DNA of 64,000 nucleotides from an uncultured bacterium (GCA_963729625.1 CAVSOU010000011.1:736001-800000), one strand, 5' to 3'; numbered from the stretch's first letter, positions 9,743 to 23,819 are shown. The notes: generated from the letters alone by a model not told the origin. Made by a program: numbers and translations.

Positions 9743-10527
9743 ACGACGTTAAGGCACCGGTGGCTGGCGCGCCCGTCTTTGAATTGCGCAACGTCCGCTA
9801 CGTGTACGGTGGGCGGCATGTGGCCCTGGACGGGATCGACCTGGTGGTCCAGGCCGGCGAACGGGTGGCCCTGCTGGGCGCCAACGGCTGCGGCAAGTCG
9901 ACGCTGCTCAAGCTCCTCGACGGCATTATCGCGCCCAGTGAGGGCGAGATGCGGGCGCTGGGGCGCGACGTGGCGCGCGTGGCCTCCGGCAAGGATGCGT
10001 TCCGCTTTCATCGGCAAGTCGGGCTGGTCTTCCAGGATCCGGACGTCCAGCTTTTCTGTGCCACCGTCCTTGACGACGTGGCCTTCGGTCCCTTGCAGCT
10101 CGGGCTCAGTAAGGAAGAGGTGGGGCGTTGTTGCGCGGAGGCGCTGGCCCAGATGGAGATCTCCCACCTCGCCCGACGAGCGCCCTTCGAGCTTTCAGGT
10201 GGTGAAAAGAAGCGGGCCGCCATCGCCTGCGTGCTCTCGCTCCGCCCGGAGGTGTTACTGCTGGACGAGCCCACTGCGTCGCTCGACCCCCGCAGCAAGT
10301 GGCTGCTCATCAACCTCATTCGCAAGCTGGGCGAGCAGGGAACGACGATCGTGGTGGCGACGCATGATCTGGATATCGTCCCCGTGCTGGCCACACGGGT
10401 GGTGATTATTGGCGAGCAGCGACGTATCCTTGCAGACGGCACGCCTGAACGCATGCTTGGCGACCGGCGGCTGCTCGTCGACGCCAATCTGATCCACGAG
10501 CAGTTGCACGAATTTAGCTTTGCGTGA
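9739..10527 (+). CDS. cbiO: ECF transporter ATPase CbiO/NikO
   Basis: GANGCGKS, FQDPDVQLF, LSGGEKKR, LLLDEPT. Confidence 0.93.
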   Translation: MNDVKAPVAGAPVFELRNVRYVYGGRHVALDGIDLVVQAGERVALLGANGCGKSTLLKLLDGIIAPSEGEMRALGRDVARVASGKDAFRFHRQVGLVFQDPDVQLFCATVLDDVAFGPLQLGLSKEEVGRCCAEALAQMEISHLARRAPFELSGGEKKRAAIACVLSLRPEVLLLDEPTASLDPRSKWLLINLIRKLGEQGTTIVVATHDLDIVPVLATRVVIIGEQRRILADGTPERMLGDRRLLVDANLIHEQLHEFSFA

Positions 10528-10620
10528 TTGAGCGATGGAGCTGAAGCAGCGGTGCGGCCACGATATCGGCCGGCAGGCCGGGCAGGATCACCAATCTGCC
10601 GCCAGACTACGGAGGGGGAG

Positions 10621-11055
10621 ATGACAGCAGGGCACGATGAGGTCGGTGCCGCTATCGCGGTCCTGCGTGGCCTCGGGCTGCGCGTGACGCCGCAGCGCCA
10701 ACTATTGGTGGAGATATCGCGCGGTTTACCGGGTCATTTCACTGCTGAGGAGGTCTATGAGCGGATGCGGGCTACGCTCCCTGCTGTCAGCAAGGTCAGC
10801 GTGTATCGCGGCCTGGAAACCCTGTGCCAGCACGGACTGGTGAGCTGCACGTCGCTCGGCAGCCACGCCGCCCGCTACGAGTGGGTCGGCGCGTCACCGC
10901 ACCACCACCTGGTCTGTTCGCGGTGTGGCCATGTGGAAGATGTGCTGGACGCCGAGCTGGACCCGCTGCGAGCCCAGCTGGCGGAACAGCACGACTTTCG
11001 AGCCGAGATCGGCCACTTCGCCATCTGGGGTACCTGCCGGCATTGCAGCCGGTAG
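10621..11055 (+). CDS. Fur-family regulator, Nur-like
   Basis: LRVTPQRQL...HHHLVCSRC...HFAIWGTCRHC; at the end of the Ni/Co transporter operon. Confidence 0.9.
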   Translation: MTAGHDEVGAAIAVLRGLGLRVTPQRQLLVEISRGLPGHFTAEEVYERMRATLPAVSKVSVYRGLETLCQHGLVSCTSLGSHAARYEWVGASPHHHLVCSRCGHVEDVLDAELDPLRAQLAEQHDFRAEIGHFAIWGTCRHCSR

Positions 11056-11237
11056 CCTAGCCGGCAGGTTCTTTCCCGTCTCGCGGCGCCCGAGACCGAT
11101 TGCGTGCTCACTGGGCCGGCATAGTAAGGGACTTCTATAGAACCTGAGCTGGCCCTAATGTGCAACTCGTTGTATCTAGTGCCAGCAACATCTGTAGTAC
11201 GGCGCGAGACGTCGTGTGGATCACGATGCTGGCGAGC

Positions 11238-11903
11238 CTAGCGAACGGAGGATGTGGGGCGCTTGCTGCTGGATGCGCTCCCAGCTCCTTCCGACGATCG
11301 CGCGTGGGCATTTCGGGCACCGACGCGTTGGCGCCGGTGAGCACGCGACCCGACGCGCTCCAGAACCAGGAAAGCGGCAATGACTGCCAAAACGGCCCAG
11401 ACGATCGCGCGGAGGATTGCCACAAAGACGTTGCCGGCGTAGTAGCCGAGATTTGTCCACAGCAGGGCGCCCTGCGGCACGATGCGCTGCTCGGCGCTGT
11501 CGAACTCCACCCACTGGTGGTGTGATGGCCAGAAATAGGCCACCGTCAGTCGGTACCGGCCGGTATGCCGATACCGGTGCGTTGCCGTGCGACCGAGGAC
11601 CGTACTGCCATCGCCGAATGACCACCGGAACGGCAGGGATGTAGATTCCTTGGGGATTGAGAGACCGACGTTCGCCATGTCTTCCATATAATGCAGGGTG
11701 TCCCCGGGTGCGGCGGCGAGCAGGCTGAAAGAGGACCAGTAGGCCAGAGAAGACGCGGTAACCTTGTCAGTTGTGATCGCCGCTTTATGGCCGTTCACGG
11801 AGAGGGAGGCAATACCGTCAAGGCTGCAGGCTTTGGCGGTCGACGCCAGTACGCCAAACAGCAGAATTGCCAGCAAGACGGGGAAGAAGCCTCTTCGCTG
11901 CAT
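11238..11903 (-). CDS. Secreted, membrane-anchored PKD-domain protein
   Basis: Signal peptide ending AKA|C; PKD motif FRWSFGDGS..ATHRY..TGRYRLTV; C-terminal TM helix and basic tail. Confidence 0.75.
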   Translation of the reverse strand: MQRRGFFPVLLAILLFGVLASTAKACSLDGIASLSVNGHKAAITTDKVTASSLAYWSSFSLLAAAPGDTLHYMEDMANVGLSIPKESTSLPFRWSFGDGSTVLGRTATHRYRHTGRYRLTVAYFWPSHHQWVEFDSAEQRIVPQGALLWTNLGYYAGNVFVAILRAIVWAVLAVIAAFLVLERVGSRAHRRQRVGARNAHARSSEGAGSASSSKRPTSSVR

Positions 11904-12280
11904 GTGCGTCGGTCGCCGCCTTTCCGCGTGCGGATGCCCACCCGCGTCATCTTCTTTGCCGTAGCTGCGCGATGCGCTTTCCGGGTGTCGTGGCCTGCAC
12001 GTGTCGCCACAAGTAAGACACGAGGAGTTGTCCCTATTTCGTAGTATGCGTGAACAGCAAGAAACTGGCGCACGTCCGGGATTCTTGCAGCGACGGGGGG
12101 AGGGCCATCACGTACCCCACGCGGTCACGCACTCACAGCGACCACCGCTCTCGGCACAGTGCCGCCAGGTTGCGCGCAATCGCGGGATAAGCTGCAGCGC
12201 TCTGAAGAACAGCGGCAGATACCGGCTCGTGCAATACCGGCGCCCAGGTCGCGCGGCTTCATTCTCCTGCGTGAACGCAC

Positions 12281-13762
12281 CTACGCTCTGACGACAACCG
12301 TATTGCTTACCTTGTCGTGCCAGCCTTGTCGTCGCCGGTCCCAGAGTAGCCAGAGCATACTCGGCAATAGCGCCAGGCTCAACACAAGCCCGAGGAGACG
12401 GGCGAAGGACGCACCAGGGCCGACTTTCGCGCCGTCTGCCCGCACGAGCCGCAAGCCCATTGCCCGGTAGCCGAGTGTCTGGCCATGCCAAGCCCAGCAC
12501 GGCACGAAATACAGCGCAGGACTGACCAGCAGCAGCAATCCGACGGGCGTGCTGAGGGATGGCGCCGCCTCAACCAGGCCACCGCCGAGAAGGAAGCATC
12601 CCAGCAGGATCGTGACGTCAACCAGAAAAGCGCCCAGCCGTGGCCCCACCGGTGCCAGCATGAGCTGGTCCGGTGGCAAGGCGCGGGAGAGCTGATCTTG
12701 GGTGTACCCGCTGGAATGCCATAGCTCGACAACCGCGGGCGGCCGAGACGGTATCGTCTTCGACGTGTCGGACCTGGCTACCGGCGATAACCCTGTCGAC
12801 GGCTGCTCCGTCGCGGCTTGGCCGGCGAGAGCGGCGTCAAAAGCCGCGACGGTAAGGAAGCGCTCTTCGATGGACAGACTGAGCGCGCGCTGCAGCGCAG
12901 CAGCGACGTCCGCACTGGTCGTCGGCACCAGGGTGCGCACATCGGGGAAGACAAATGGGGGGAAGGCTGCAGGATCGCGTCCTGTCAACAGGTGGTGCAT
13001 GGTCGCCGCCAGCGCATATTCGTCAGAACGCGCCTCTGCCAATCCCTGATACTGTTCCGGCGGCGCATAGCCGCCGGTGCCGATAGCGGTACCGCCTGCA
13101 GCGCTCCTCCGTCGGGCAATTCCGAAATCAATCAGCGTCAACCTGCCGTCCGGGCGCAGCATGATGTTCTGCGGTTTCAGGTCGCGGAAAATGACGGGCG
13201 GGGTCTGGCTGTGAAGATAGGTCAGTGCTCCAGTGAGGACGGCGGCCCATGACAGCACCTGTGCTTCAGGCAGGCCGGGGTCGCCGCGCTGCGCCAGCTC
13301 AGCTGCCAAGTTGTGGCCTTCGATATACTCCATGACCAGGAAACGCGCGCTGCCTTCCGAGACGACATCGCGGATATCGCAAATCGCGGGGTGCTGCAGC
13401 TGCGCAAGTACCTCGACCTCGCGCGCGAACATGGCCATGGCTTCCTGTGCCTCGGCCGGATCGGCGCTATGCAAGAGAATGGTCTTGATCGCGCACGGCC
13501 GCCCCTGGAGCTTCTCATCCGAGGCGCGCCATACCGCGCCCATGGCGCCTGAGGCGATAGGCGCCTCGACGCGATAGCGACCGCCGACGAGTTCGCCGCT
13601 GTGCAGCACGGGCGCGTCGAATGCAGCAGCATTCGTCGGCGCCGCTGCTCCCACGTTCTGCCGTGCAGGGCTCTCGACGCGCGCGCCACAATTCGGGCAA
13701 TAAACGGTCCCAACCACCACAGGTTGCGAGCATGCAGGGCACACGGTCTCGGCCACGCGCAT
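12281..13762 (-). CDS. Ser/Thr protein kinase with N-terminal zinc ribbon and C-terminal RDD domain
   Basis: CPAC/CPNC ribbon; AIK, FRDLKPQN, DFG, YAPPE; RDD pattern RLGAFLVD...GQTLG...WHDKVSNTVVV. Confidence 0.92.
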   Translation of the reverse strand: MRVAETVCPACSQPVVVGTVYCPNCGARVESPARQNVGAAAPTNAAAFDAPVLHSGELVGGRYRVEAPIASGAMGAVWRASDEKLQGRPCAIKTILLHSADPAEAQEAMAMFAREVEVLAQLQHPAICDIRDVVSEGSARFLVMEYIEGHNLAAELAQRGDPGLPEAQVLSWAAVLTGALTYLHSQTPPVIFRDLKPQNIMLRPDGRLTLIDFGIARRRSAAGGTAIGTGGYAPPEQYQGLAEARSDEYALAATMHHLLTGRDPAAFPPFVFPDVRTLVPTTSADVAAALQRALSLSIEERFLTVAAFDAALAGQAATEQPSTGLSPVARSDTSKTIPSRPPAVVELWHSSGYTQDQLSRALPPDQLMLAPVGPRLGAFLVDVTILLGCFLLGGGLVEAAPSLSTPVGLLLLVSPALYFVPCWAWHGQTLGYRAMGLRLVRADGAKVGPGASFARLLGLVLSLALLPSMLWLLWDRRRQGWHDKVSNTVVVRA

Positions 13763-14177
13763 TCCTCCGGTTTCGGCTCAGGTATATGATGCTGCAGCCG
13801 CTTGCACGAAAGCGACGTCCGCTCCCCACGGCACCAAACAGGCCGAGCTACTGCCGATAAGCTGCAGCGCTTCGGTTGCAGGTGATCCAGCACGTGCCCG
13901 TCATGCTGGCCCGCATCCCACTGGACTTGTCGCGCGAGTTACAAACTACGATACAACCTCAGCGGCTAATGCGCCGCGAGCAGTATCCGTTCGGACGCCG
14001 CCGGCAGCAGGCGGCGGGCGCCCGATGCGTGGCCTGGGCTCGACGCGCGAATGTGATGGCTGTGGGCGCCATCGCCGCTCCCTTACCTCCACGCGCACCA
14101 ATGACCTTCGCCAGGGCGTCTGCCGCGAGCGCGCCGCCGGCACGATTGTCGGTGGAGATAGTCGTTCCACATGAACT

Positions 14178-17100
14178 TCACGGCACATTCGCGCATGCCT
14201 TGCGGTATGGCAGGTCACCGAGGTACTCCTTCCATTCCTGGGCCGTTAGGTTGCGATTGGCGATCGCACAGGCACGTTGTGCCAGGGACGTGGGCCCGAT
14301 GGACCACAGCCGGAGAGGCGCGTCGGACACCCCGGCAGTGCCCGCGGCCAGCAGCCGGCCGTCCGGACTGAAGGCAAGGCTCGTGACCTTATCCCCGTGC
14401 CCGGCCAGAGCCGGGCCGAGTGTCTGCCCGGTCGCCAGGTCCCACAGGTGGATCGTGCCGTCGTCGCCACCGGACGCCAGGGTCTGGCCGTCGGGACTGA
14501 AGGCCACGCTGTACAGCGGGCTGGTGCTCGTGGTGAGGGGCAGACCCAGCGCTCGCCGGTGCCCCACATCCCACAGTCGGACCGCACAGTCGGCGGAGGC
14601 CAGGATCCGGCCATCCGGGCTGAATGCCAGGCTGTTCACCGGGCCGGTGCACCCCGTAAGCGGCCGACCGAGCAGCTGCCGCGTTGCCACACGCCACAGG
14701 CGTATGGTCCCGTCCTGGCCGCCGGAAGCCAGTGTCTGACCGTCCGGACTGAAGGCTACGCTCAGCACGGCACCTGCGTGCCCGGCGAGCGGCGGCCCGA
14801 TCGCTTGCCCGCGTACCGCATCCCACAGCCGGACGTTGCCGTCTCCGCCGCCGGTGGCCTCGATCCTGCCATCGGCACTGTATGCGGCGCTGCTGACGTC
14901 GTACAGTGCGTGGGCTGAGCCGATCGGCCGGCCGTTCCGCACGTCCCACCGGAGGAAGTTCGCGCCCCCGGCGGCCGGATCGGCGCCGGTAGCGGCCAGG
15001 GTGTTGCCGCCGGGACTGAAAGCCAAGCTCAACACTGATCCTGCGTCCCCGGCCAGGGGTGGACCGACCGGTTGGCCAGTCGTCACGCTCCACAAGCGAA
15101 CGGTCGCGTCAGCGCCGCCCGCCGCCAGGGTTGTGCCGTCTGGGCTGAAGGCCTCGCTACTGACCTGACCGACTGGCCCGGCAAGCACCCGGCTGAGGGC
15201 GCCGGCGCCCGTGGCGTCCCAGAGGCGCACCGTGCCGTCATCGCCGGTGGACACGAGCGTTTGGCCGTCGGGGCTGAAGGCGAGACCGTTCACCGGGCCG
15301 GTATGGCCGGTGAGGGGCGGATTGACCGGTTGCCAGGTCGCCGCGTTCCAGAGCCGGATAATCCCAACCTCGCCGCTCGCAGCGAGGAGCGTACCGTCCG
15401 GACTGAAGGCCACGGCATACACCGGGCCGGAGCCCGCGACGAGCACCTGGCGGGATAATCGCCGGCTCACCATATCCCACCGCAGGATCGCGCCCCCCTC
15501 GCTGCCGGCGGCGAGCGTGCGGCCGTCGGGACTGAAGGCCAGGCTTTGCGCGACGAACGTGGTCGCGCCGCGCAAGGGCGCCAAGAGCCTGTGCCGCGCC
15601 ACGTCCCACAGCGCGATAGTGCCGCCTTCGCCGCACGTAGCCAGGATCGTGCCGTCGGGGCTGAAGGCCACGGCATTCACGTACCAGAGCCCCGCGTGCA
15701 GCGGCGTGGCGAGCGCCCGGCGGCCCGCCGCGTCCCAGAGCTGGATCGTGCCGGAACCGTCGCCCGCCGCGAGAATCTTGCCATCCGGGCTGAAGGCCAC
15801 GCTGTTGACGGAACTGCGCTGTCCCGCCGGCAATGTCGCCAGCAGCCGCCGGCTCGCCACATTCCAGAGTTGTACCGTGCCATCGCTGCTCGCGGCGGCA
15901 AGCACCGTGCCGTCCGGGCTGAAGGCGAGGCTGCTCACCGCATCGGTATGGCCGGTGAGCGGCGGGCCGATGGCCTGGCGTTGTGCCAAGTCCCACAGCC
16001 GTACCGTACCGTCTTCGCTGCCGGAGGCGATAATCCCTCCCCTGGGGCTGAAGGCTAGGCTGCGCACGGGGCCGGCCTGCGCCGCGAGAAATGCCAGCAG
16101 GCGCGGATTGTAGTCGATGGCGCGGATCAAGCCGGCATGGGTTTGCGCCGAGCCGTTCAATCGGTCGGCTTCCGTGCTCAGCAGCAGCGCGACCTGCAGG
16201 TTGCTGCCCAGCAACGTGCCGGCCCGCAAATCCAGGTCGCGCACCAGCTCGGCGACCGCCGCATCGCGGGCGGCCACCGCGCGTGTCCGTTCATTCGAAG
16301 CCACCGAGGCGTTGGTGAGGGCCACGATGCCCAAGGCCGCGGCGACCAGCAGGAAGAGGGCCAGCACCGCGGCGAGCAGGCGCAGCCGCGTGCCCGCCAG
16401 GCGCGCGAGCCCCAACTCGCGCGCCTGCCGCGCTTGCTCCCCCGCCGCCTGTTCGTGCTCCGCCCTCTCGGCCGCCGTGAGGAAGGCATGCTCCTCGGCA
16501 CTCGGCGTGTTCCGCGCCGCCCAGGCCCGTGCCTCTACCAGGACGGTGCCGCGATAGAGATGGTCGCTGGGCTGGCCACGCCGGGCCCAGACGGCGGCGT
16601 CGGCGCTGATCGTCTGCTGCAGGCGCACGTCTTCCCGCGCCTCGTGCAGCCAGCCCGACAGCCGCGGCCACTCGCGAATCAGCGCCTCGTGACTGACCTC
16701 CACGCGGCTGGTGCCGCCCTGCTCGCTCGCGGTCAGCAGCCGCGCCAGCACGAAGGCGTCTGCCACCTCGCGCATCAGCGCAGTCTGCCCGGTGTCGGAC
16801 AGGATCAGCTCGCTCACTGCCGCTCGCCGGCGGGTCGTGTCCTGCTCGGTGGCGCCCGGGTCGATCAGCCGCAGGAAAAGCGCCCGCGCCAGATGTCGAT
16901 GATCGTCGGTGGGCAGCGCGGTGTAGGTCGCCTCGGCCTGCCGGCTCATCGCGCCGCGCACGCCGCCCAGCTCCTCGTAGGCGGCCACGGTCAGGGTCGT
17001 TCCCTGGCGGCGCGCGACGAGCTGCTCGAGGGTGAACTCGAGCAGGGGCAGCGCCCCCGCCTGGCCTGCCACCTCTAAAGCAGATCGCCCACCAGGCTGG

Positions 17101-18567
17101 GCTCGAAGCGAGACTGCACGTCGGGCAGGGCAGCAGGCCGCTCGACGGCCTCCCGCAGCTCGGCCACGCTCATCGGCACCACGACCTTGCCGTGCGTCTC
17201 CAGCAGGGCCGCGAGACCGGGATAGGCCAGTGGCCGGTCATAGAAGTCGGCACGCAGGGTGAGGATGGCTAGCAGCGGGCCGCGCGGCTCGCCGACCGCC
17301 GTGAGCAGGAGGTCGATGAATTGCCGGCGTTCCTCCTCATCCGTGGTGAGCGTGAACAGCTCCTCGAGCTGGTCGACCACCAGCACCACCCGCTGGTCGG
17401 GATGAGGGGCCAGTTGCCGCGCCCAGAGGTGCAGGCCACGGGCGTCCTCGGCGCCGAGGTCCTCCCGCAGGGCATGGATGCTGCGCTCACCCTTGCCTGC
17501 CAGGGCCACGGCCAGGGCCTCCAGGGGCCGGGCGCCGGGGAGGACCGGATCGAGGTAGACCCAGCTCTCGCTGCCGGGCAGGGCGCCCGCCTTGAGGCGC
17601 GGGAGGAGCCCGGCGCGCACCAGGCTGGACTTGCCCGAGCCGCTCGGTCCCACCACGGCCAGCAGGCGGGCCGGCGCGGCCTGCGCCGTAGCCAGGATGG
17701 ACGCAACCGCCTCCACCAGCGTCTGCACGAAGGCGGCCCGCCCGAAGAAGTCGCCCGCGTCCTCCTCGCCGAACGCGCGCAGGCCCTTGTACGGGTTGCG
17801 TGGCGCCACCGGCGCGGCCGGTGCGCGCAACGGATTCCTCCAGGCAGGGAGAGTGGCGCGCCTATCGCGGCGACGATGGCGGCGATTGCCTCGGCATAGC
17901 GCGCCCCGCGGGCATCCACGTAGGGCACGCTGGCCAGTCCCACCGGCACACAGTCCTGCCACTCCTCCCCCGCCGACCAGATTGGCACGATGGGGCGGCC
18001 GTACATCTCGGCCAGGCTGAGCTCCCTGAGGACCCAGCGCGATGAGCGGGTAGCGGGCGACGCCACCAGCAGCACAGCCCGGCAGGCGCGCATGGCCGTC
18101 CGCATCGCTTCCGGCCGGCCCGCCCCGGATTGCGGCTGAGAGTGCTCCGACCAGCCTGCGACACCGTTCGCGGCGAGGTCAGCCTGCAGCCGCGCCACAA
18201 AGTCGCCGTCCTCCACCGCATGCGAGAGGACTGCGGAGGGCGTGTCCGCCCCCTTGTGCACGTGCTGGGCGAGCGGCGGCTGGGCCTCGTCGCCGAAGCG
18301 CTCCCACAGTTCCGGCGCGGCTGTAGTCGTCTCCTGCCAGGTACGGGCAGCGGCGAGAAGACGGTCGCCGTCGGCGGCCGGCAGGCCGAGGGCTTTGGCG
18401 AGCCGGTGTACCGTGTCGGGATAGGGGCGGTGCGCGCCCTGCTCCAGGTACTTGAGCGCGCGCGTGCTCAGCTCCGCCCGCTCAGCCAACTCCTCCTGCG
18501 TCAGGTTGGCGGCGCGTCGATACCCCCGAAGGAGCGCTCCAAATACCTGCGCCTGTGTGCCCGCCAT
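14178..18567 (-). CDS. XRE-HTH / TIR / nSTAND1 NTPase / TM / 14xWD40 NLR-like protein, split by two apparent 1-bp deletions (~17850 and ~17075)
   Basis: FGALLRGYRRAANLTQEELAERAEL (HTH); LSHAVEDGDFVARLQADL...SRWVLREL (TIR); NPYKGLRAF...GPSGSGKSS...LVVDQLEELF...LTLRADFY (nSTAND1); hydrophobic helix LRLLAAVLALFLLVAAALGIVAL; 14 AFSP/WD repeats; about 1463 aa if repaired. Confidence 0.88.
18157..18299 (+). repeat. 143-bp segment of linker/TIR-coding DNA, source copy
   Basis: Matches 19772-19914 with 3 substitutions. Confidence 0.95.
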
Positions 18568-18887
18568 CTTCTCGCGCCGTCGCGCCTTCCCCGGTCGCGC
18601 GTTCGCACCGCTTTCCGTCGCTTTCTGCGCACCATCATAGCACAGCCGTCTCACTACTTTTCCCCTAACTTTGCCCGTGCTTTGCCTGGTGTGACGCGCG
18701 CGCAGGGTGCACGCTAGCGGTGTTGATACTCGTGCATCGAGGCCGATCCGATCGGCGTTTCCGGCTACCGGCACGGGGGCATATCGCGATAGTTCGTGCA
18801 GGAGGGGACCGTGCCGATCGTCCCGGCAAACCAGGAGGTCATCGATCAAACGAGCACCCGATGGGACTGAAACAGAAGGAGACGGGA

Positions 18888-19580
18888 ATGAAACGCACTT
18901 GGAAGGTGGTAGCAGTTCTGGCGGTCGCGCTCGCCCTCGCCGCGACTGGACCCATGCGGGCCGCCGAGGCGGGGAGTTCGCAGCCCCATGTGTTCTCGCC
19001 CCAGTTGCGCCCCTACGGTCACTCGTACAGCGAATGGGAAGTCCGGCTCGACCAGTGGCAATTCGCCATACCCGCATCGGAGAACCCCGGTTTGGTCCAT
19101 ACCGGTGCGCACTGCGCCGAGGGTCAGTCCGGCCCGGTCTGGTACCTCATCGCGCCCATGTACGCCACCGATACCCAGACCTGCACGGTGCCTGCCGGCA
19201 AGGCGTTCCTCATTAGTCCGGCTGGCTGGGAGTGTTCGACGGCTGAAGGAGGCGGCGACACCTCTGCGGCACTGCGTGACTGCGCCAGGAAGGACCAGGA
19301 TACGGTGACAATAGCCAACGTCACAATAGATGGGGTGCACCTCACGAACCTGCTCACCCGCTATCGGTTCGTTACCCCCCTGTTCACCTTCAAGTATCCT
19401 GCTGACAACATGCTGCAGCAGGTGCCTGGGCCTGGCACCACCGCGTCGGTCGGTGACGGCATCGTCGTCATGCTGGCTCCGCTGGCCGCGGGACATCACA
19501 CGCTCGAAATGGGCTCCCGGTCTGTCGCTCCTCACTCGATGGCTGGAGGAGTCACCTACCACCTGACGGTTAGCCGCTGA
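18888..19580 (+). CDS. Secreted Cys-containing hypothetical protein, paralogue 1
   Basis: Signal peptide; PYGHSYSEW...W..AIP..NP...TGAHC..GQSGPVWYL...TCTVPAGKA...ECST...YHLTV; AAGGAG RBS. Confidence 0.85.
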   Translation: MKRTWKVVAVLAVALALAATGPMRAAEAGSSQPHVFSPQLRPYGHSYSEWEVRLDQWQFAIPASENPGLVHTGAHCAEGQSGPVWYLIAPMYATDTQTCTVPAGKAFLISPAGWECSTAEGGGDTSAALRDCARKDQDTVTIANVTIDGVHLTNLLTRYRFVTPLFTFKYPADNMLQQVPGPGTTASVGDGIVVMLAPLAAGHHTLEMGSRSVAPHSMAGGVTYHLTVSR

Positions 19581-19702
19581 TCGGCGTGTTCCTGGCGGCA
19601 CCCGCCGACTGCCTCAGGGCCTGCTGCATGACAGGCCCTAACATGCCAGGCAGAAACCGGCCAGTGCAGACAGCGTTCGGGTTGCATCATGATGAGAAGA
19701 CC

Positions 19703-19945
19703 GTGAAACGCATGAAGAAGCTGGGAGCGGTACTGGTGGCCATGCTCACTGTCGTGACCCTGGGATCGGCATGCGACACCGTTCGCGGCGAGGTCAGCCT
19801 GCAGCCGCGCCACAAAGTCGCCGTCCTCCACTGCATGCGAGAGGACGGCGGAGGGCGTGTCCGCCCCCTTGTGCACGTGCTGGGCGAGCGGCGGCTGGGC
19901 CTCATCGCCGAAGCCATCAAGCAAGCCGGCACACGTGCGGGCTGA
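19703..19945 (+). pseudogene. Signal-peptide stub of another paralogue fused to antisense TIR DNA (80-aa chimeric ORF)
   Basis: MKRMKKLGAVLVAMLTVVTLGSA resembles the paralogue signal peptides, then switches at 19772 into the 143-bp repeat. Confidence 0.55.
19772..19914 (+). repeat. Second copy of the 143-bp TIR-coding segment
   Basis: 140/143 identical to 18157-18299, same + orientation. Confidence 0.95.
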
Positions 19946-19962
19946 AACTGAAGGAGATGGAA

Positions 19963-20638
19963 ATGAAAAGCACATGGAGGGTGGTAGCAGTTCTGGCGGT
20001 CGCGCTCAGCCCTCGTCGCAATGGGACCCATGCGGGCCGTCGAGGCGGGGAGTCCGCAGCTTCATGTGTTCTCGCCCCAGTCACGCCCCTACGGCCACAC
20101 GTACAGCGAATGGGCCGTACGGTGGTGGCAGTGGGATCTCGCCATACCTTCTACGAGTAACCCTCTGACCGATGACTCCGGTGCGCATTGCGCCATAGGA
20201 CAGTCCGGTCCCGTCTGGTACCTCAGCGGGACGGCCGCCGGCGGCACCGATTGTGCGGACCTGCACGGTGCCTTCCGGCAAGGCACTACTCATCTTGGCG
20301 GCGGGCTCAGAGTGTTCGACCGTGGAAGGAGCTGGCGACACCTTTGAGGCACTACGTGCCTGCACCAGGAAGTACACCGATGAGAGTGACAGAGAGCTGA
20401 CATCACGGCGGATGGTGTTGACATTTCACACCTGCTCACACGTTACCGGTTCGCGACCTCCATGTTCACCTTTGCATATCCCAAGGACTTCATCTGTGAG
20501 GCAAGCACCTGCGCCGGCGGTGGGACATCGTATATGCTTGCTCCGCTAGCGGCGGGACAGCGCGCAATCGAGTGCGCGGCGGTCTGGCCTCCCGCTCGAT
20601 GGCGGGACAGTAAGATCCATCTGACGATTGGCCGCTGA
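19963..20638 (+). pseudogene. Secreted protein paralogue 2, multiply frameshifted (possibly an assembly artefact)
   Basis: MKSTWRVVAV.../PYGHTYSEWAVRWWQWDLAIP...GQSGPVWYL/RTCTVPSGKA in different frames; 3' part is a deleted version of paralogue 3. Confidence 0.7.
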
Positions 20639-20771
20639 GCAGCGCCAGCGGCGCGCCGTGGTGCCGCTGCAACGGCCTGCATGCAGAAGGCCAAAAAAGA
20701 AAGAGAGTGAAACGCATGAAGGGAGAGGACGAGAAAAGAAAAAGAGGTGAGACAGGGATAGGCACCGAAAT

Positions 20772-20893
20772 CGTTCGCGGCGAGGTCAGCCTGCAGCTGC
20801 AAAAAGCGTCTGCACGCATGCGAGAGGACGGCGGAGGCGTGTCGCCCCCGTGCACGTGCTGGGCGAGCGGCGTCAGGGCGTGATCGGCGAAGC
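20772..20893 (+). repeat. Third, degraded copy of the TIR-coding segment
   Basis: cgttcgcggcgaggtcagcctgcag...catgcgagaggacggcggag...gtgcacgtgctgggcgagcggcg with many small deletions. Confidence 0.8.
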
Positions 20894-20937
20894 TAAGAAG
20901 CCGGTATATGTGCGGGCTGAACTGTAAGGAGAAAGAT

Positions 20938-21642
20938 ATGACAGCACATGGAGGAAGCTAGCAGCGTTGCTGGCAGTCATGCTCGCCATCCTCGCAATGG
21001 GACCGGCGCCTGCCGCCGCGCGCGGCAAGCCGCACCGATTCACGTCTTCCCGCCCCAGGCACGCCCGTACGGCCACACGTACAGCGAATGGGCCGTACGG
21101 TACTGGCAGTGGGATCTGGCCATACCCGTCTACGCAGTAACCCTCTGACTCGATAACTTCGGTGCACACTGCGCCGTAGGACCAGTCCGGTCCCGGTCTG
21201 GTACCTCAGCGGGACGGCCGCCGGCGGCACCATTGTGCGGACCTGCACGGTGCCTTCCGGCAAGGCACTACTCATCTTGGCGGCGGGCTCAGAGTGTTCG
21301 ACCGTGGAAGGAGCTGGCGACACCTTTGAGGCACTACGTGCCTGCGCCAGGAAGTACACCGATGGAGTGACAGAAGCTGACATCACGGCGGATGGTGTTG
21401 ACATTTCACACCTGCTCACACGTTACCGGTTCGCGACCTCCATGTTCACCTTTGCATATCCCAAGGACTTCATCTTTGGCAAGGTCCCTGCGCCCGGGAC
21501 GAGCAAATCGGTGGCTGACATCATGTTCATCATGCTTGCTCCGCTGGCGGCGGGACAGCACGCAATCGAGGTGCGCGGCCGGTCTGGCCCTCCCGCTGCG
21601 ATGGCCTGGGACATTAAGTACCATCTGACGATTGGCCGCTGA
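20938..21642 (+). pseudogene. Secreted protein paralogue 3, frameshifted 5' half and clean 3' half (21235-21642)
   Basis: 5' end is a mosaic of paralogues 2 and 4; 3' ORF RTCTVPSGKA...ECSTVEG...YHLTIGR. Confidence 0.7.
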
Positions 21643-21778
21643 GCAGCGCCAGCCCGGCGCTGCGCACAAAATGTCCCGGTGCCTCGCTGCACGGCCTGCC
21701 GATGCAGGGCCCTGGCGCGGGTCAGGACGCGATCGGCGAAGCTAGCCGGTATTCGGGCTGAACTGTATGGAGAAAGCC

Positions 21779-22498
21779 ATGACACACATGAGGAAGCTCG
21801 CAGCCTTGCTCGCAGTCATGCTCGCCATCCTCGCCTTGGGACCGGCGCCTGCCGCCCGCGCGGCAAGCGCACCGCTTCATGTCTTTCCGCCCCAAGCGCG
21901 CCCCTATGGTCACACGTACACGGAATGGGAAATCCGATTCTGGCAGTGGTTGAATGCGATACCTGTGCCGCAGAACCCCTGGCTGGATAGCACTGGCGCG
22001 CACTGCGCGGTAGGCCAGTCCGGCCCGGCCTGGTACCTCCTCGACAACCTGGGCGTCGCCCATCCCGTTGTCCGCACCTGCACGGTACCGGCCGGCACAG
22101 CGCTGTTCGTCGCGCCGGGCATCGAGGGGTGTGCCACCGCGAATGGGGACGGCGATAGCTACGAGGCATTGCGCAAATGCACCGAAGGTTATGCCGCTAC
22201 GGCGACAGGAGCTGACGTTACGGTGGATGGGATTCACATCCCGAACGTGTTCACCCGCTACTTCTTCATGACCCCCCTCTTCACCTTCAAGTATCCCGCT
22301 CACAGCCTGCTGGACTATCCGAGTGCCTTGGGTCCCAGCGATGTGCCTGCGCCTGGGCCTGGGATCACCAAGTCAGTGGGTGGCGGCAACTTCGTCATGC
22401 TGGCGCCGCTTGCAGCGGGGCGGCACACGCTTGACCTGCGCGCCTGGGGTAGCTCGTGGGCCATAGAAACCACGTACCATCTGACGATCGGCCGCTGA
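21779..22498 (+). CDS. Secreted Cys-containing hypothetical protein, paralogue 4
   Basis: Signal peptide; PYGHTYTEW.IRFWQW..AIP..NP..DSTGAHC..GQSGPAWYL...RTCTVPAG...YHLTIGR. Confidence 0.85.
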   Translation: MTHMRKLAALLAVMLAILALGPAPAARAASAPLHVFPPQARPYGHTYTEWEIRFWQWLNAIPVPQNPWLDSTGAHCAVGQSGPAWYLLDNLGVAHPVVRTCTVPAGTALFVAPGIEGCATANGDGDSYEALRKCTEGYAATATGADVTVDGIHIPNVFTRYFFMTPLFTFKYPAHSLLDYPSALGPSDVPAPGPGITKSVGGGNFVMLAPLAAGRHTLDLRAWGSSWAIETTYHLTIGR

Positions 22499-22528
22499 GT
22501 CACGCGGGCCAGGCGTTGCGCGCAGATC

Positions 22529-22575
22529 GCCCTAGGACCCGCTGCACCGGTGGCCGATGAAGCGGGTCCTAGGGC
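22529..22575. terminator. Strong hairpin between convergent genes
   Basis: 15-bp perfect stem GCCCTAGGACCCGCT / AGCGGGTCCTAGGGC. Confidence 0.75.
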
Positions 22576-22619
22576 AAGTCAACCATATGCTTCGAGGCAG
22601 CGGAAGCCCCGGAGCCGCT

Positions 22620-23819
22620 TCAGTCACGGGCCGACTCATCCTTTACGTAGGCCTCCAGAGCGTCGATCAGCGTATCGAGATCTTCCTCAGAGGTGAAATA
22701 CGGCGTTGAGATGCGGATCCCGTTGTGTTCGGGCACCAATCGGGTGATGATCTGCCGCTGCCAGAGCGCGGTCTGGAGCAGCTTCGCCTCAACTCCTTCG
22801 ATGGAGAACGACGTGATAGCCGACGAGTTCTCCCAAGCGTCGGGCGTGAGCACGGTCGTGCCCGGCACAGTGCGGAGCCGGACTCGAAGGTACCCTGCCA
22901 GCGCGCGCTCGCGCTGCTCGACCCAATCCCAGCCCAGGCTGTCGATCCAGGCGACGGCATCCGCGAGGACGGACACCACGGCGAGATTCTGGGTGCCGGA
23001 CTCAAACATGTGGCGAGCGTCGCGGTGGCTCAGCATGTCCTCAATTGCATCGCCGCCGGGCTCCTCTATGCCGCCGGCCATGTACGGCGGCGACAGCAGA
23101 GGCCACGTCGAGTCGCGTGCAACCACTATGCCGGACCCTTTGGGACCGCCCAACCACTTATGGCCGTTGCTCACGTAGAAATCACAGCCGATCGCCGGTA
23201 CCGAGACTCGCCACTGGCCAAGTTCTTGCGTGCCGTCGACGAGTGTCAACATAGGACGGTTGCGTCCAACCGCATTGAGCGTGTCGATCATCGCGCAGAT
23301 CGCCGCTGCGGGCAGGCGGATACCGGTCTGCGAGCTGACGTGGCTAAAGGCCACCATGCGGGTGTGTTCTGTGATCTGTGCCTCGACATTGCGTATGGTC
23401 ACCGCGGGATCGGTGTCAACCTCAAACGTTCGCTTTGCAAACAGGCCGCGTCGCGATCCGTATTCCCAGGGAAAAGACAGTGCGGGATGCTCCTGATCAG
23501 AAATGACCACCTCGTCGCCGGGCCGCCAGGCGAGGCTGCCAAAAACATAGTTGATTCCGTCGGTGGCATTGCGGCCGAAGGCAAGCCAGCTCGGCGGCAC
23601 GCCGAGAATTCCGGCCACCGCCGGGCGCGCCTTGGCGTATTGGGGAACATCGCGGTCGTCATAGTGTCGATGGCCGTAGTGCGCCGTGAGCGAGATCAGG
23701 TCCAGGTAGCGATCGAGCACCGGCTGCGGGGTCAGGCCGTGAGTGGCTTCGTTGAGGTAGGTCATCGACTGGAGTCCGGGAAAGGCGCCCCGCACGTCGG
23801 CGATAGGGTTCATCTGCAT
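22620..23819 (-). CDS. Class V PLP-dependent aminotransferase/lyase (C-S lyase or CefD-like)
   Basis: YLNEATHG, RNATDGIN, DQEHP, DGTQ, GHKWLGGPKGSG; no desulfurase catalytic Cys loop visible. Confidence 0.88.
   Translation of the reverse strand: MQMNPIADVRGAFPGLQSMTYLNEATHGLTPQPVLDRYLDLISLTAHYGHRHYDDRDVPQYAKARPAVAGILGVPPSWLAFGRNATDGINYVFGSLAWRPGDEVVISDQEHPALSFPWEYGSRRGLFAKRTFEVDTDPAVTIRNVEAQITEHTRMVAFSHVSSQTGIRLPAAAICAMIDTLNAVGRNRPMLTLVDGTQELGQWRVSVPAIGCDFYVSNGHKWLGGPKGSGIVVARDSTWPLLSPPYMAGGIEEPGGDAIEDMLSHRDARHMFESGTQNLAVVSVLADAVAWIDSLGWDWVEQRERALAGYLRVRLRTVPGTTVLTPDAWENSSAITSFSIEGVEAKLLQTALWQRQIITRLVPEHNGIRISTPYFTSEEDLDTLIDALEAYVKDESARD

Follow-up and report, generated by a model that had tools for sequence, protein, structure and literature searches.

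The Locus and Its Genes

We analysed a stretch of 64,000 nt from the genome of an uncultured bacterium (GCA_963729625.1, CAVSOU010000011.1:736001-800000), here called the window, to which all positions refer unless a contig or locus is named; the genome of the window is G000 and its sister genome G001. Between positions 14178 and 22575, a large gene coding for a helix-turn-helix (HTH), a TIR domain, an nSTAND1 NTPase, a transmembrane (TM) helix and WD40 repeats (the STAND gene) is separated by a divergent spacer from four tandem copies, about 1 kb apart, of a gene for a secreted protein. The initial annotation had described this shared spacer as 320 bp long; its presence was confirmed, with a size of 317 bp (18571..18887). 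The pairing of the two genes is confined to one Chloroflexota lineage, in which it recurs in two related bacteria of soil type.

The STAND gene as a whole (14178..18570, minus strand) is a probable pseudogene, read in three successive minus-strand open frames, each with domains of its own (17269-19077, with the real start at ATG 18570; 17075-17962; and 14178-17072). In the first of these, searched with Pfam over 17269-18570, we found HTH_31 (51.3 bits, cut-off 27) and TIR_2 (54.9 bits, cut-off 28). HTH_3 was also matched at the N-terminus (36 bits, cut-off 23), so that an XRE-family HTH (PF13560 / PF01381) is present; it lies at 18367..18543 (residues 10-68 from ATG 18570) and the TIR domain (PF13676), matched above its cut-off, at 17878..18228 (residues 115-231). 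The window TIR domain has Glu at Trp+4 (WVLRE), a candidate, going by SARM1 and plant TIR motifs, for the catalytic Glu of NAD-cleaving TIR domains. Four of the six TIR-bearing relatives in the alignment share this residue, with Asp in L038 and Val in C9.

The second frame matched nSTAND1 profile positions 1-215 of 379 (208.7 bits; 17081..17794) and the third positions 220-378 (158.8 bits; 16566..17069), the latter together with WD40 (414.9 bits, 12 stretches). A match to the whole nSTAND1 domain (PF20703), above the cut-off of 27.1, is thus divided between two frames. Its translation contains both a P-loop, GPSGSGKSS, and an acidic segment, VVLVVDQLEELF, the Walker A and Walker B motifs by their usual definitions. 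Between the NTPase and the WD40 part lies a hydrophobic stretch of 19 residues, LLAAVLALFLLVAAALGIV, with Arg residues before it, which is predicted to form a single membrane-spanning helix (16311..16379; Kyte-Doolittle value over 19 residues, KD19, 2.99). An equivalent helix (KD19 2.5-3.0) was present in all eight relatives examined, a Frankia protein included. The WD40 part (14298..16103) comprises 14 blades of the AFSPDG type, counted in the translation, which make up two propellers, and it is followed by a conserved C-terminal tail with two Cys (14181..14297; RACAIANRNLT..EW..YLGDLPY...C), in which C935 and P955 are invariant across eight sequences. Since a single span separates the two halves of the protein, and the HTH and the NTPase need the cytoplasm, the propellers are predicted to be outside, and the HTH, TIR domain and NTPase inside. 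The domain composition given in the initial annotation (XRE-HTH, TIR, nSTAND1, TM-like helix and 14 WD40 repeats in one gene) was recovered in full, spread over the three frames. The STAND gene is richer in G+C (70.7-73.1%, taken over 14001-18000) than its surroundings, with about 60-66% in the array and elsewhere in the window; Ala/Gly/Pro-rich WD40 repeats or a foreign origin may account for this.

On the opposite strand, the first secreted copy (c1, 18888..19580) is intact and encodes 230 aa with a signal peptide, and the fourth (c4, 21767..22498) is also intact, with 243 aa from 21767 or 239 aa from the likely start at 21779. The second (c2, 19963..20638) is a pseudogene with several frameshifts and a 19-nt deletion, and the third (c3, 20938..21642) is also a pseudogene, disrupted over its first half but open over the final 135 codons; at least four frameshifting indels were found in each. 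The three to four paralogous signal-peptide proteins of the initial annotation are therefore four copies, of which only c1 and c4 are intact, and the motifs by which it had recognised them (PYG..Y.EW and others) turned out to be conserved columns of the family alignment.

The array also keeps traces of how it arose. Between c1 and c2 there is a remnant of the start and signal peptide of another copy (MKKLGAVLVAMLTVVTLGSAC; 19697..19780, plus strand), joined to a duplicate of the 5' stretch of the STAND gene that codes for TIR (19764..19922, minus strand), in which 19764-19914 matches 18149-18299 with 96% identity. A second and more decayed copy of the TIR-coding fragment lies between c2 and c3 (20766..20901, minus strand). 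Because such remnants lie between the copies, the whole pair appears to have been duplicated as a unit, and the simplest history would be tandem duplication of the pair followed by deletion of most of the extra STAND copies. A hairpin with 22-nt arms (22529..22575) separates the array from a convergent aminotransferase gene, and folding supported the initial observation that the array ends at a strong hairpin (-51.2 kcal/mol in a 106-nt context, z = -3.3), though it has no U tract and was not called by a terminator scan, which returned a single chance-level site inside c4. The left neighbour of the STAND gene (12281-13762, minus strand) codes for a Ser/Thr kinase fused to an RDD membrane domain and has 15 matches in G001, the best with 59% identity.

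Probable Decay of the Window Copy

The window STAND gene is not one uninterrupted reading frame. Its alignment to three paralogues revealed two non-triplet gaps specific to the window, one of 4 nt near 17856 and one of 1 nt at about 17076. The first break (17850..17862, minus strand) is in the variable linker between TIR and nSTAND1, with the Pfam matches passing to another frame between 17877 and 17794; the second (17075..17077, minus strand) is a deletion in the conserved LLYEV motif that leads to a TAG codon. Five of the eight STAND paralogues (about 4.4 kb) in G000 and G001 are uninterrupted open reading frames (ORFs) of 1355-1545 aa, and four of these intact paralogues gave a full-length nSTAND1 match in Pfam.

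Errors of assembly are an improbable though real alternative, under which the STAND gene, and perhaps c2 and c3, would be intact in the organism. The G000 assembly is incomplete (21 contigs, 87% complete, 5% contamination), and both STAND breaks are single small indels. Moreover, a paralogue at G000 C10:42660-47074 (L128), which is 96% identical in the N-terminal part of nSTAND1 and has no secreted gene alongside, bears two single-base insertions of its own, what makes cross-mapping of reads between paralogues during polishing conceivable. Against such errors, no sign of breakage was seen in the 25 other large window ORFs scanned, and the five paralogues mentioned above are unbroken. The many indels and the 19-nt deletion in c2 and c3, with the decayed remnants between genes, also fit real decay better than random error. 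The locus was in none of the three public sequencing runs found, in which the best share of words was 0.05. We consider it likely that the STAND breaks represent real decay, and the pair in the window, with two breaks in the first gene and two of four copies of the second being pseudogenes, is probably dead.

Recurrence of the Pair within the Lineage

In G000, an HTH-TIR-nSTAND1 paralogue adjoins the secreted family at four of the six places with full-length family copies. These are the window (divergent, STAND gene broken), C11:370-375k (divergent, both genes intact), C11:513-522k (divergent, STAND gene broken) and C17:187-194k (convergent, all genes intact). An nSTAND1 neighbour was found at two of five places in G001, one of them divergent and intact (L038) and the other convergent (L039), and at two further places in that genome other XRE-HTH proteins stand upstream, namely an 826-aa XRE-NB-ARC-TPR protein (L041) and a 327-aa HTH_31 protein. 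With about ten nSTAND1 loci in 5.4 Mb, a given place would have one within 5 kb with a probability of about 2%, against the four of six observed in G000.

The tree of the STAND proteins placed those of the divergent pairs in one shallow clade and those of the convergent pairs in a second. Branches leading to the secreted copies (0.3-1.0) are much longer than those of the neighbouring nSTAND1 parts (0.02-0.11); with 12 of 21 inner branches open, the tree of the secreted copies is too poorly resolved to address co-divergence.

Other HTH-nSTAND1-TM-WD40 paralogues adjoin other secreted-looking proteins: a FecR-domain protein (G000 C9:26558-27760; L125:7558-8760), a 433-aa protein that belongs to no family (G000 C14; L126:7201-8499) and a 465-aa FG-GAP propeller (G001; L133:5435-6829). 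In another family of the phylum, we found a Pkinase-TIR-nSTAND1 protein (L136; G328:C65:4710-6998), suggesting that the module ahead of the TIR domain has been swapped between an HTH and a protein kinase.

Between about 130 and 85 nt ahead of the secreted gene, a block is conserved in all four paralogous divergent spacers. In the window it is found at 18768..18810 (plus strand), with AGGAGG at its end about 85 nt before the start of c1, and it is a candidate promoter, operator or leader. A GCACG...CGTGC pair is confined to the window copy among the four, and Rfam gave no match at E <= 1 over 13500-23500. After the AGGAGG (window 18800-18887; L123, L127 and L038), a short open frame of 5-19 codons precedes the secreted gene, and those of C11:516k and L038 both contain MPWQAKQ; such frames could be leader peptides or chance.

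Our preferred reading, which we hold tentatively and at somewhat less than even odds, is that the STAND gene and the array are a regulator and its divergent target, duplicated together and specific to this Chloroflexota lineage. Under it, the membrane-tethered XRE-HTH would bind the shared spacer and control both the promoter of the secreted protein and its own, while sensing of a ligand by the WD40 propellers would lead to NTP-dependent assembly and TIR activity. Control of the divergent promoter would be the most likely role of the HTH, and divergent regulator-target pairs are common for XRE-type regulators. Consistent with such a reading are the architecture of the protein, the TM helix preceded by Arg residues in all eight relatives, the recurrence of the pair, the conserved block in the spacer, the duplication as a unit, and the analogous neighbours at distant loci described below.

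A Large Family of Extracellular Domains

The secreted family was matched by no model in Pfam, NCBIfam or PADLOC, and among PDB sequences the best E-value was 0.46. Similar sequence clusters are named only "hypothetical" and "lipoprotein family". When 1.84 billion representatives were searched with a profile, the family came to 9,095 clusters, counted at 50% identity, at E <= 0.001 and 2,610 at E <= 1e-30, and loci with the family come from many phyla and from archaea. The domain occurs singly or as two to six copies per protein, and multi-copy proteins are many. Pfam searches of 24 longer members revealed Ig, HYR, Big_7, DUF5122, Phytase-like esterase, GDSL lipase and PAP2 domains, dockerins and collagen repeats. 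In one protein of 965 aa, a PAP2-like part is followed by two copies of the domain without Cys, and giant Ig/HYR surface proteins carry it two to six times (fusions and repeats in P0127, P0128, P0148, P0204, P0259, P0123 and P0124).

An AlphaFold2 model from an alignment of 42 sequences (pLDDT 90.9) showed a beta sandwich preceded by an N-terminal region of helix and loops, in which the conserved Trp, Pro and Cys motifs lie. The domain is thus modelled, over about 200 residues, as an Ig-like sandwich below a Trp-rich cap with four conserved Cys. The top rows in Foldseek were chagasin-type peptidase inhibitors (E 2.4e-4, probability 0.99), with TM-scores of 0.22 on the query and 0.45 on the target, and a weak profile match linked the family to a Leishmania inhibitor (E 0.48). 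The Ig-like sandwich is common to the family and chagasin (I42), but the conserved N-terminal cap has no counterpart in the latter, and Pfam Inhibitor_I42 was not matched. In VIA-align the best Z-score, 6.0, was found among generic Ig and FnIII domains, against 5.6 for chagasin. Chagasin thus scored no better than generic domains, and the fold searches give nothing more specific than an Ig-like sandwich.

The search by profile and structure that the initial annotation had proposed thus yielded the extent of the family and an Ig-like fold, though no catalogued family. The idea of a dedicated set of effectors did not hold, the family being instead a very large and general one of extracellular domains. 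We infer that it is a modular extracellular binding domain.

Loci outside the Genus

To find regulators next to the family in other taxa, we scanned the nearest divergent ORF wherever the sequence reached 600 nt or more upstream, which was so at 72 of 108 loci, and compared the regulators by BLAST. Large proteins in which a DNA-binding domain is combined with an NTPase or a repeat sensor include an XRE-HTH plus TPR protein (L010), a wHTH-AAA_35 protein followed by AAA_35-TM-WD40 (L057), AAA_16-TPR-GerE (L075 and its orthologue L067) and wHTH-TM-TPR (L078, with the identical sequence in L080, and L098; 48% identical to each other), to which a possible regulator known by BLAST similarity only (L009) may be added. 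Other signalling genes were found at L035, L036, L060, L073, L088 and L108. The remaining loci had nothing related there, with no Pfam match or with unrelated enzymes, a transposase or integrases. In L010, from a metagenome-assembled genome (MAG) of Chloroflexia, two secreted copies alternate with two near-identical methyltransferase genes (9896-13500), flanked by XRE-HTH/TPR and BTAD-AAA_16-TPR proteins. We regard the sensor regulators beside the family at distant loci as a lead, not as a result.

The same loci bear on an extracytoplasmic partnership, in which the secreted Ig-like protein would bind the external WD40 propellers as a co-receptor, bait or ligand and the arrays would represent alternative specificities; periplasmic partners are known for ToxR-type regulators. 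The predicted topology and the signal peptides would put both products outside the cytoplasm, the longer branches of the secreted copies agree with such a role, and some distant regulators also combine a TM helix with an external repeat sensor (wHTH-TM-TPR, AAA_35-TM-WD40). However, at least one associated regulator, AAA_16-TPR-GerE of L075 (best KD19 1.58), has no TM helix and cannot meet a secreted protein outside. Furthermore, most family members have no such neighbour. A partnership of this kind is improbable in our view, and the variety of the regulators, at least one of them without a membrane helix, would fit a regulator and its target better.

Several observations weigh against the regulator-and-target reading. 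In the lineage itself, the pairs are paralogues in two clades, so the pairing may have arisen independently no more than twice; STAND paralogues lacking the family were found at G000 C10:42k, C14:190k, C8 and C10:984k and at G001 C12:983k and C10:54k, and family copies without a STAND gene at C7:192k, C11:205k and L037 of G001. No palindromic operator common to all four spacers was seen, and a sigma-70 scan of 18400-22700 returned no promoter-like site. The family was present in only two of 41 related genomes, G000 and G001, and ten further genomes with TIR-nSTAND1 homologues had no copy of it. At 28 genome loci with the family, nSTAND1 was near it once, in a Frankia nSTAND1-TM-WD40 protein with an integrase between the two. 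The 80 metagenome loci had no nSTAND1 gene near the family, only 23 of them exceeding 6 kb, so that many could not show a neighbour. Finally, the category of large DNA-binding sensor regulators, into which the distant neighbours were placed, was set after the data were seen and has no matched background rate.

Among the loci of the same census, two short contigs from genomes end in WD40 repeats, and a WD40 protein is near the family at one of the 80 metagenome loci. A lack of enrichment of STAND genes near the family, named in the initial annotation as one outcome that would speak against its proposal, is largely what was found outside the genus (none of 80 and one of 28). Its view of the pair as a one-component system with secreted targets fares better within the genus, where the pairing recurs in G000 (4/6) and G001 (2/5), than outside it, where it is not general. 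Overall, what the initial annotation observed is confirmed and its interpretation has partial support; the broken STAND gene and the dead half of the array also speak against the latter.

These results can also be explained by linkage without function, in which unrelated neighbours in a variable region were copied by segmental duplication, the secreted protein being a general module and the STAND protein a self-contained sensor-effector. We give this explanation, the main rival, roughly one chance in three. It accounts for a family whose clusters are mostly unlinked to STAND genes and whose domain lies within large surface proteins and is fused to extracellular enzymes, as well as for TIR-nSTAND1 homologues without the family. 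It is also favoured by the restriction of the paired STAND proteins to two clades, by the messy duplication and deletion seen in the remnants between copies, and by the lack of synteny between the locus and G001, where the aminotransferase that flanks the array has its orthologue at C9:14.6k, on a contig without a reported family match. On the other hand, the pairs have stayed adjacent even though identity has fallen to about 50-60% among the secreted copies and to 44-66% among the HTH-TIR parts. Both divergent and convergent arrangements occur, and other DNA-binding sensor proteins stand beside the family in unrelated taxa.

Relation to Known Systems

The nSTAND1 domain traces to a survey of conflict systems (Kaur et al. 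2020, PMC7159879). Proteins that carry a TIR or peptidase head on nSTAND1 or NACHT are described by Dore et al. (2024, PMC10907252), who predict a periplasmic sensor for some of them; Kaur et al. (2021, PMC8195603) place an HTH in the output position of related systems, and a 2026 preprint (10.64898/2026.01.04.697583) counts WD40 among STAND sensors. The passages on nSTAND1 conflict systems in PMC7159879, PMC10907252 and PMC8195603 do not mention a pairing with a secreted array. Our search of the literature, supplementary tables aside, found no work joining STAND, TIR domain, WD40, XRE and transmembrane.

The STAND protein shares with the nSTAND1 NLR-like proteins of multicellular bacteria the central NTPase, an N-terminal output such as TIR, a WD40 repeat sensor, numerous paralogues and the swapping of modules. 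It differs from them in the XRE-HTH that precedes the TIR domain and in the strong predicted membrane helix between the NTPase and the propellers; on the domain comparison, this DNA-binding head and this membrane span appear to be new relative to known nSTAND1 NLR-like proteins. Its close homologues (33 proteins at E <= 1e-10) carry automatic names such as "TIR domain-containing protein [Chloroflexota bacterium]" and [quoted passage not shown].

Avs and bNACHT proteins also have a STAND NTPase, a repeat sensor and an N-terminal effector, TIR being among the known ones. They are cytoplasmic sensors of phage proteins, whereas the sensor here is predicted to be external. With the PADLOC 2.0 models only HTH, ThsB-like TIR and P-loop-level matches were obtained, besides a WD40 match to the HEAT-ARM_XIII model, and no defence STAND family was found.

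As in MalT, AfsR and LAL regulators, one polypeptide contains a DNA-binding domain, a STAND NTPase and a repeat sensor, and proteins of this type (AAA_16-TPR-GerE, BTAD-AAA_16-TPR) adjoin the secreted family at some distant loci. In the STAND protein, however, the DNA-binding domain is XRE-type and N-terminal, there are a TIR domain and a membrane helix, and the sensor is WD40 and not TPR. An N-terminal DNA-binding domain, a single span and a sensor predicted to be external are shared with ToxR and CadC, and the wHTH-TM-TPR proteins divergent from the family at L078 and L098 are of the same build. Membership of the ToxR/CadC-like one-component regulators was rejected nonetheless, since the DNA-binding domain is XRE and not OmpR-type, in spite of the TM helix; in addition, TIR and NTPase make up an insertion of about 700 cytoplasmic residues.

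Implications

Taken together, the association is specific to one lineage and of moderate interest, without being a general system. The window holds a degraded example of it, and the intact pairs elsewhere in the genome are better objects of study. The secreted family is among the larger families of extracellular domains still without a catalogue entry; if it were modelled and named, thousands of "hypothetical" proteins could be annotated.

In a more far-reaching scenario, to which we assign little probability, the STAND proteins would be membrane-spanning NLR-like receptors whose external WD40 propellers read an extracellular cue with or through the secreted Ig-like proteins, whose arrays would offer alternative specificities, with simultaneous output by XRE-HTH transcription and by TIR-based NAD signalling or depletion. 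To our knowledge, the NLR-like STAND proteins that have been studied in bacteria detect phage proteins inside the cytoplasm. If true, this would be an outside-in NLR, unlike those, and a subfamily that joins an external propeller to a TIR domain and a DNA-binding head would extend NLR-like STAND proteins to surface sensing and transcriptional output.

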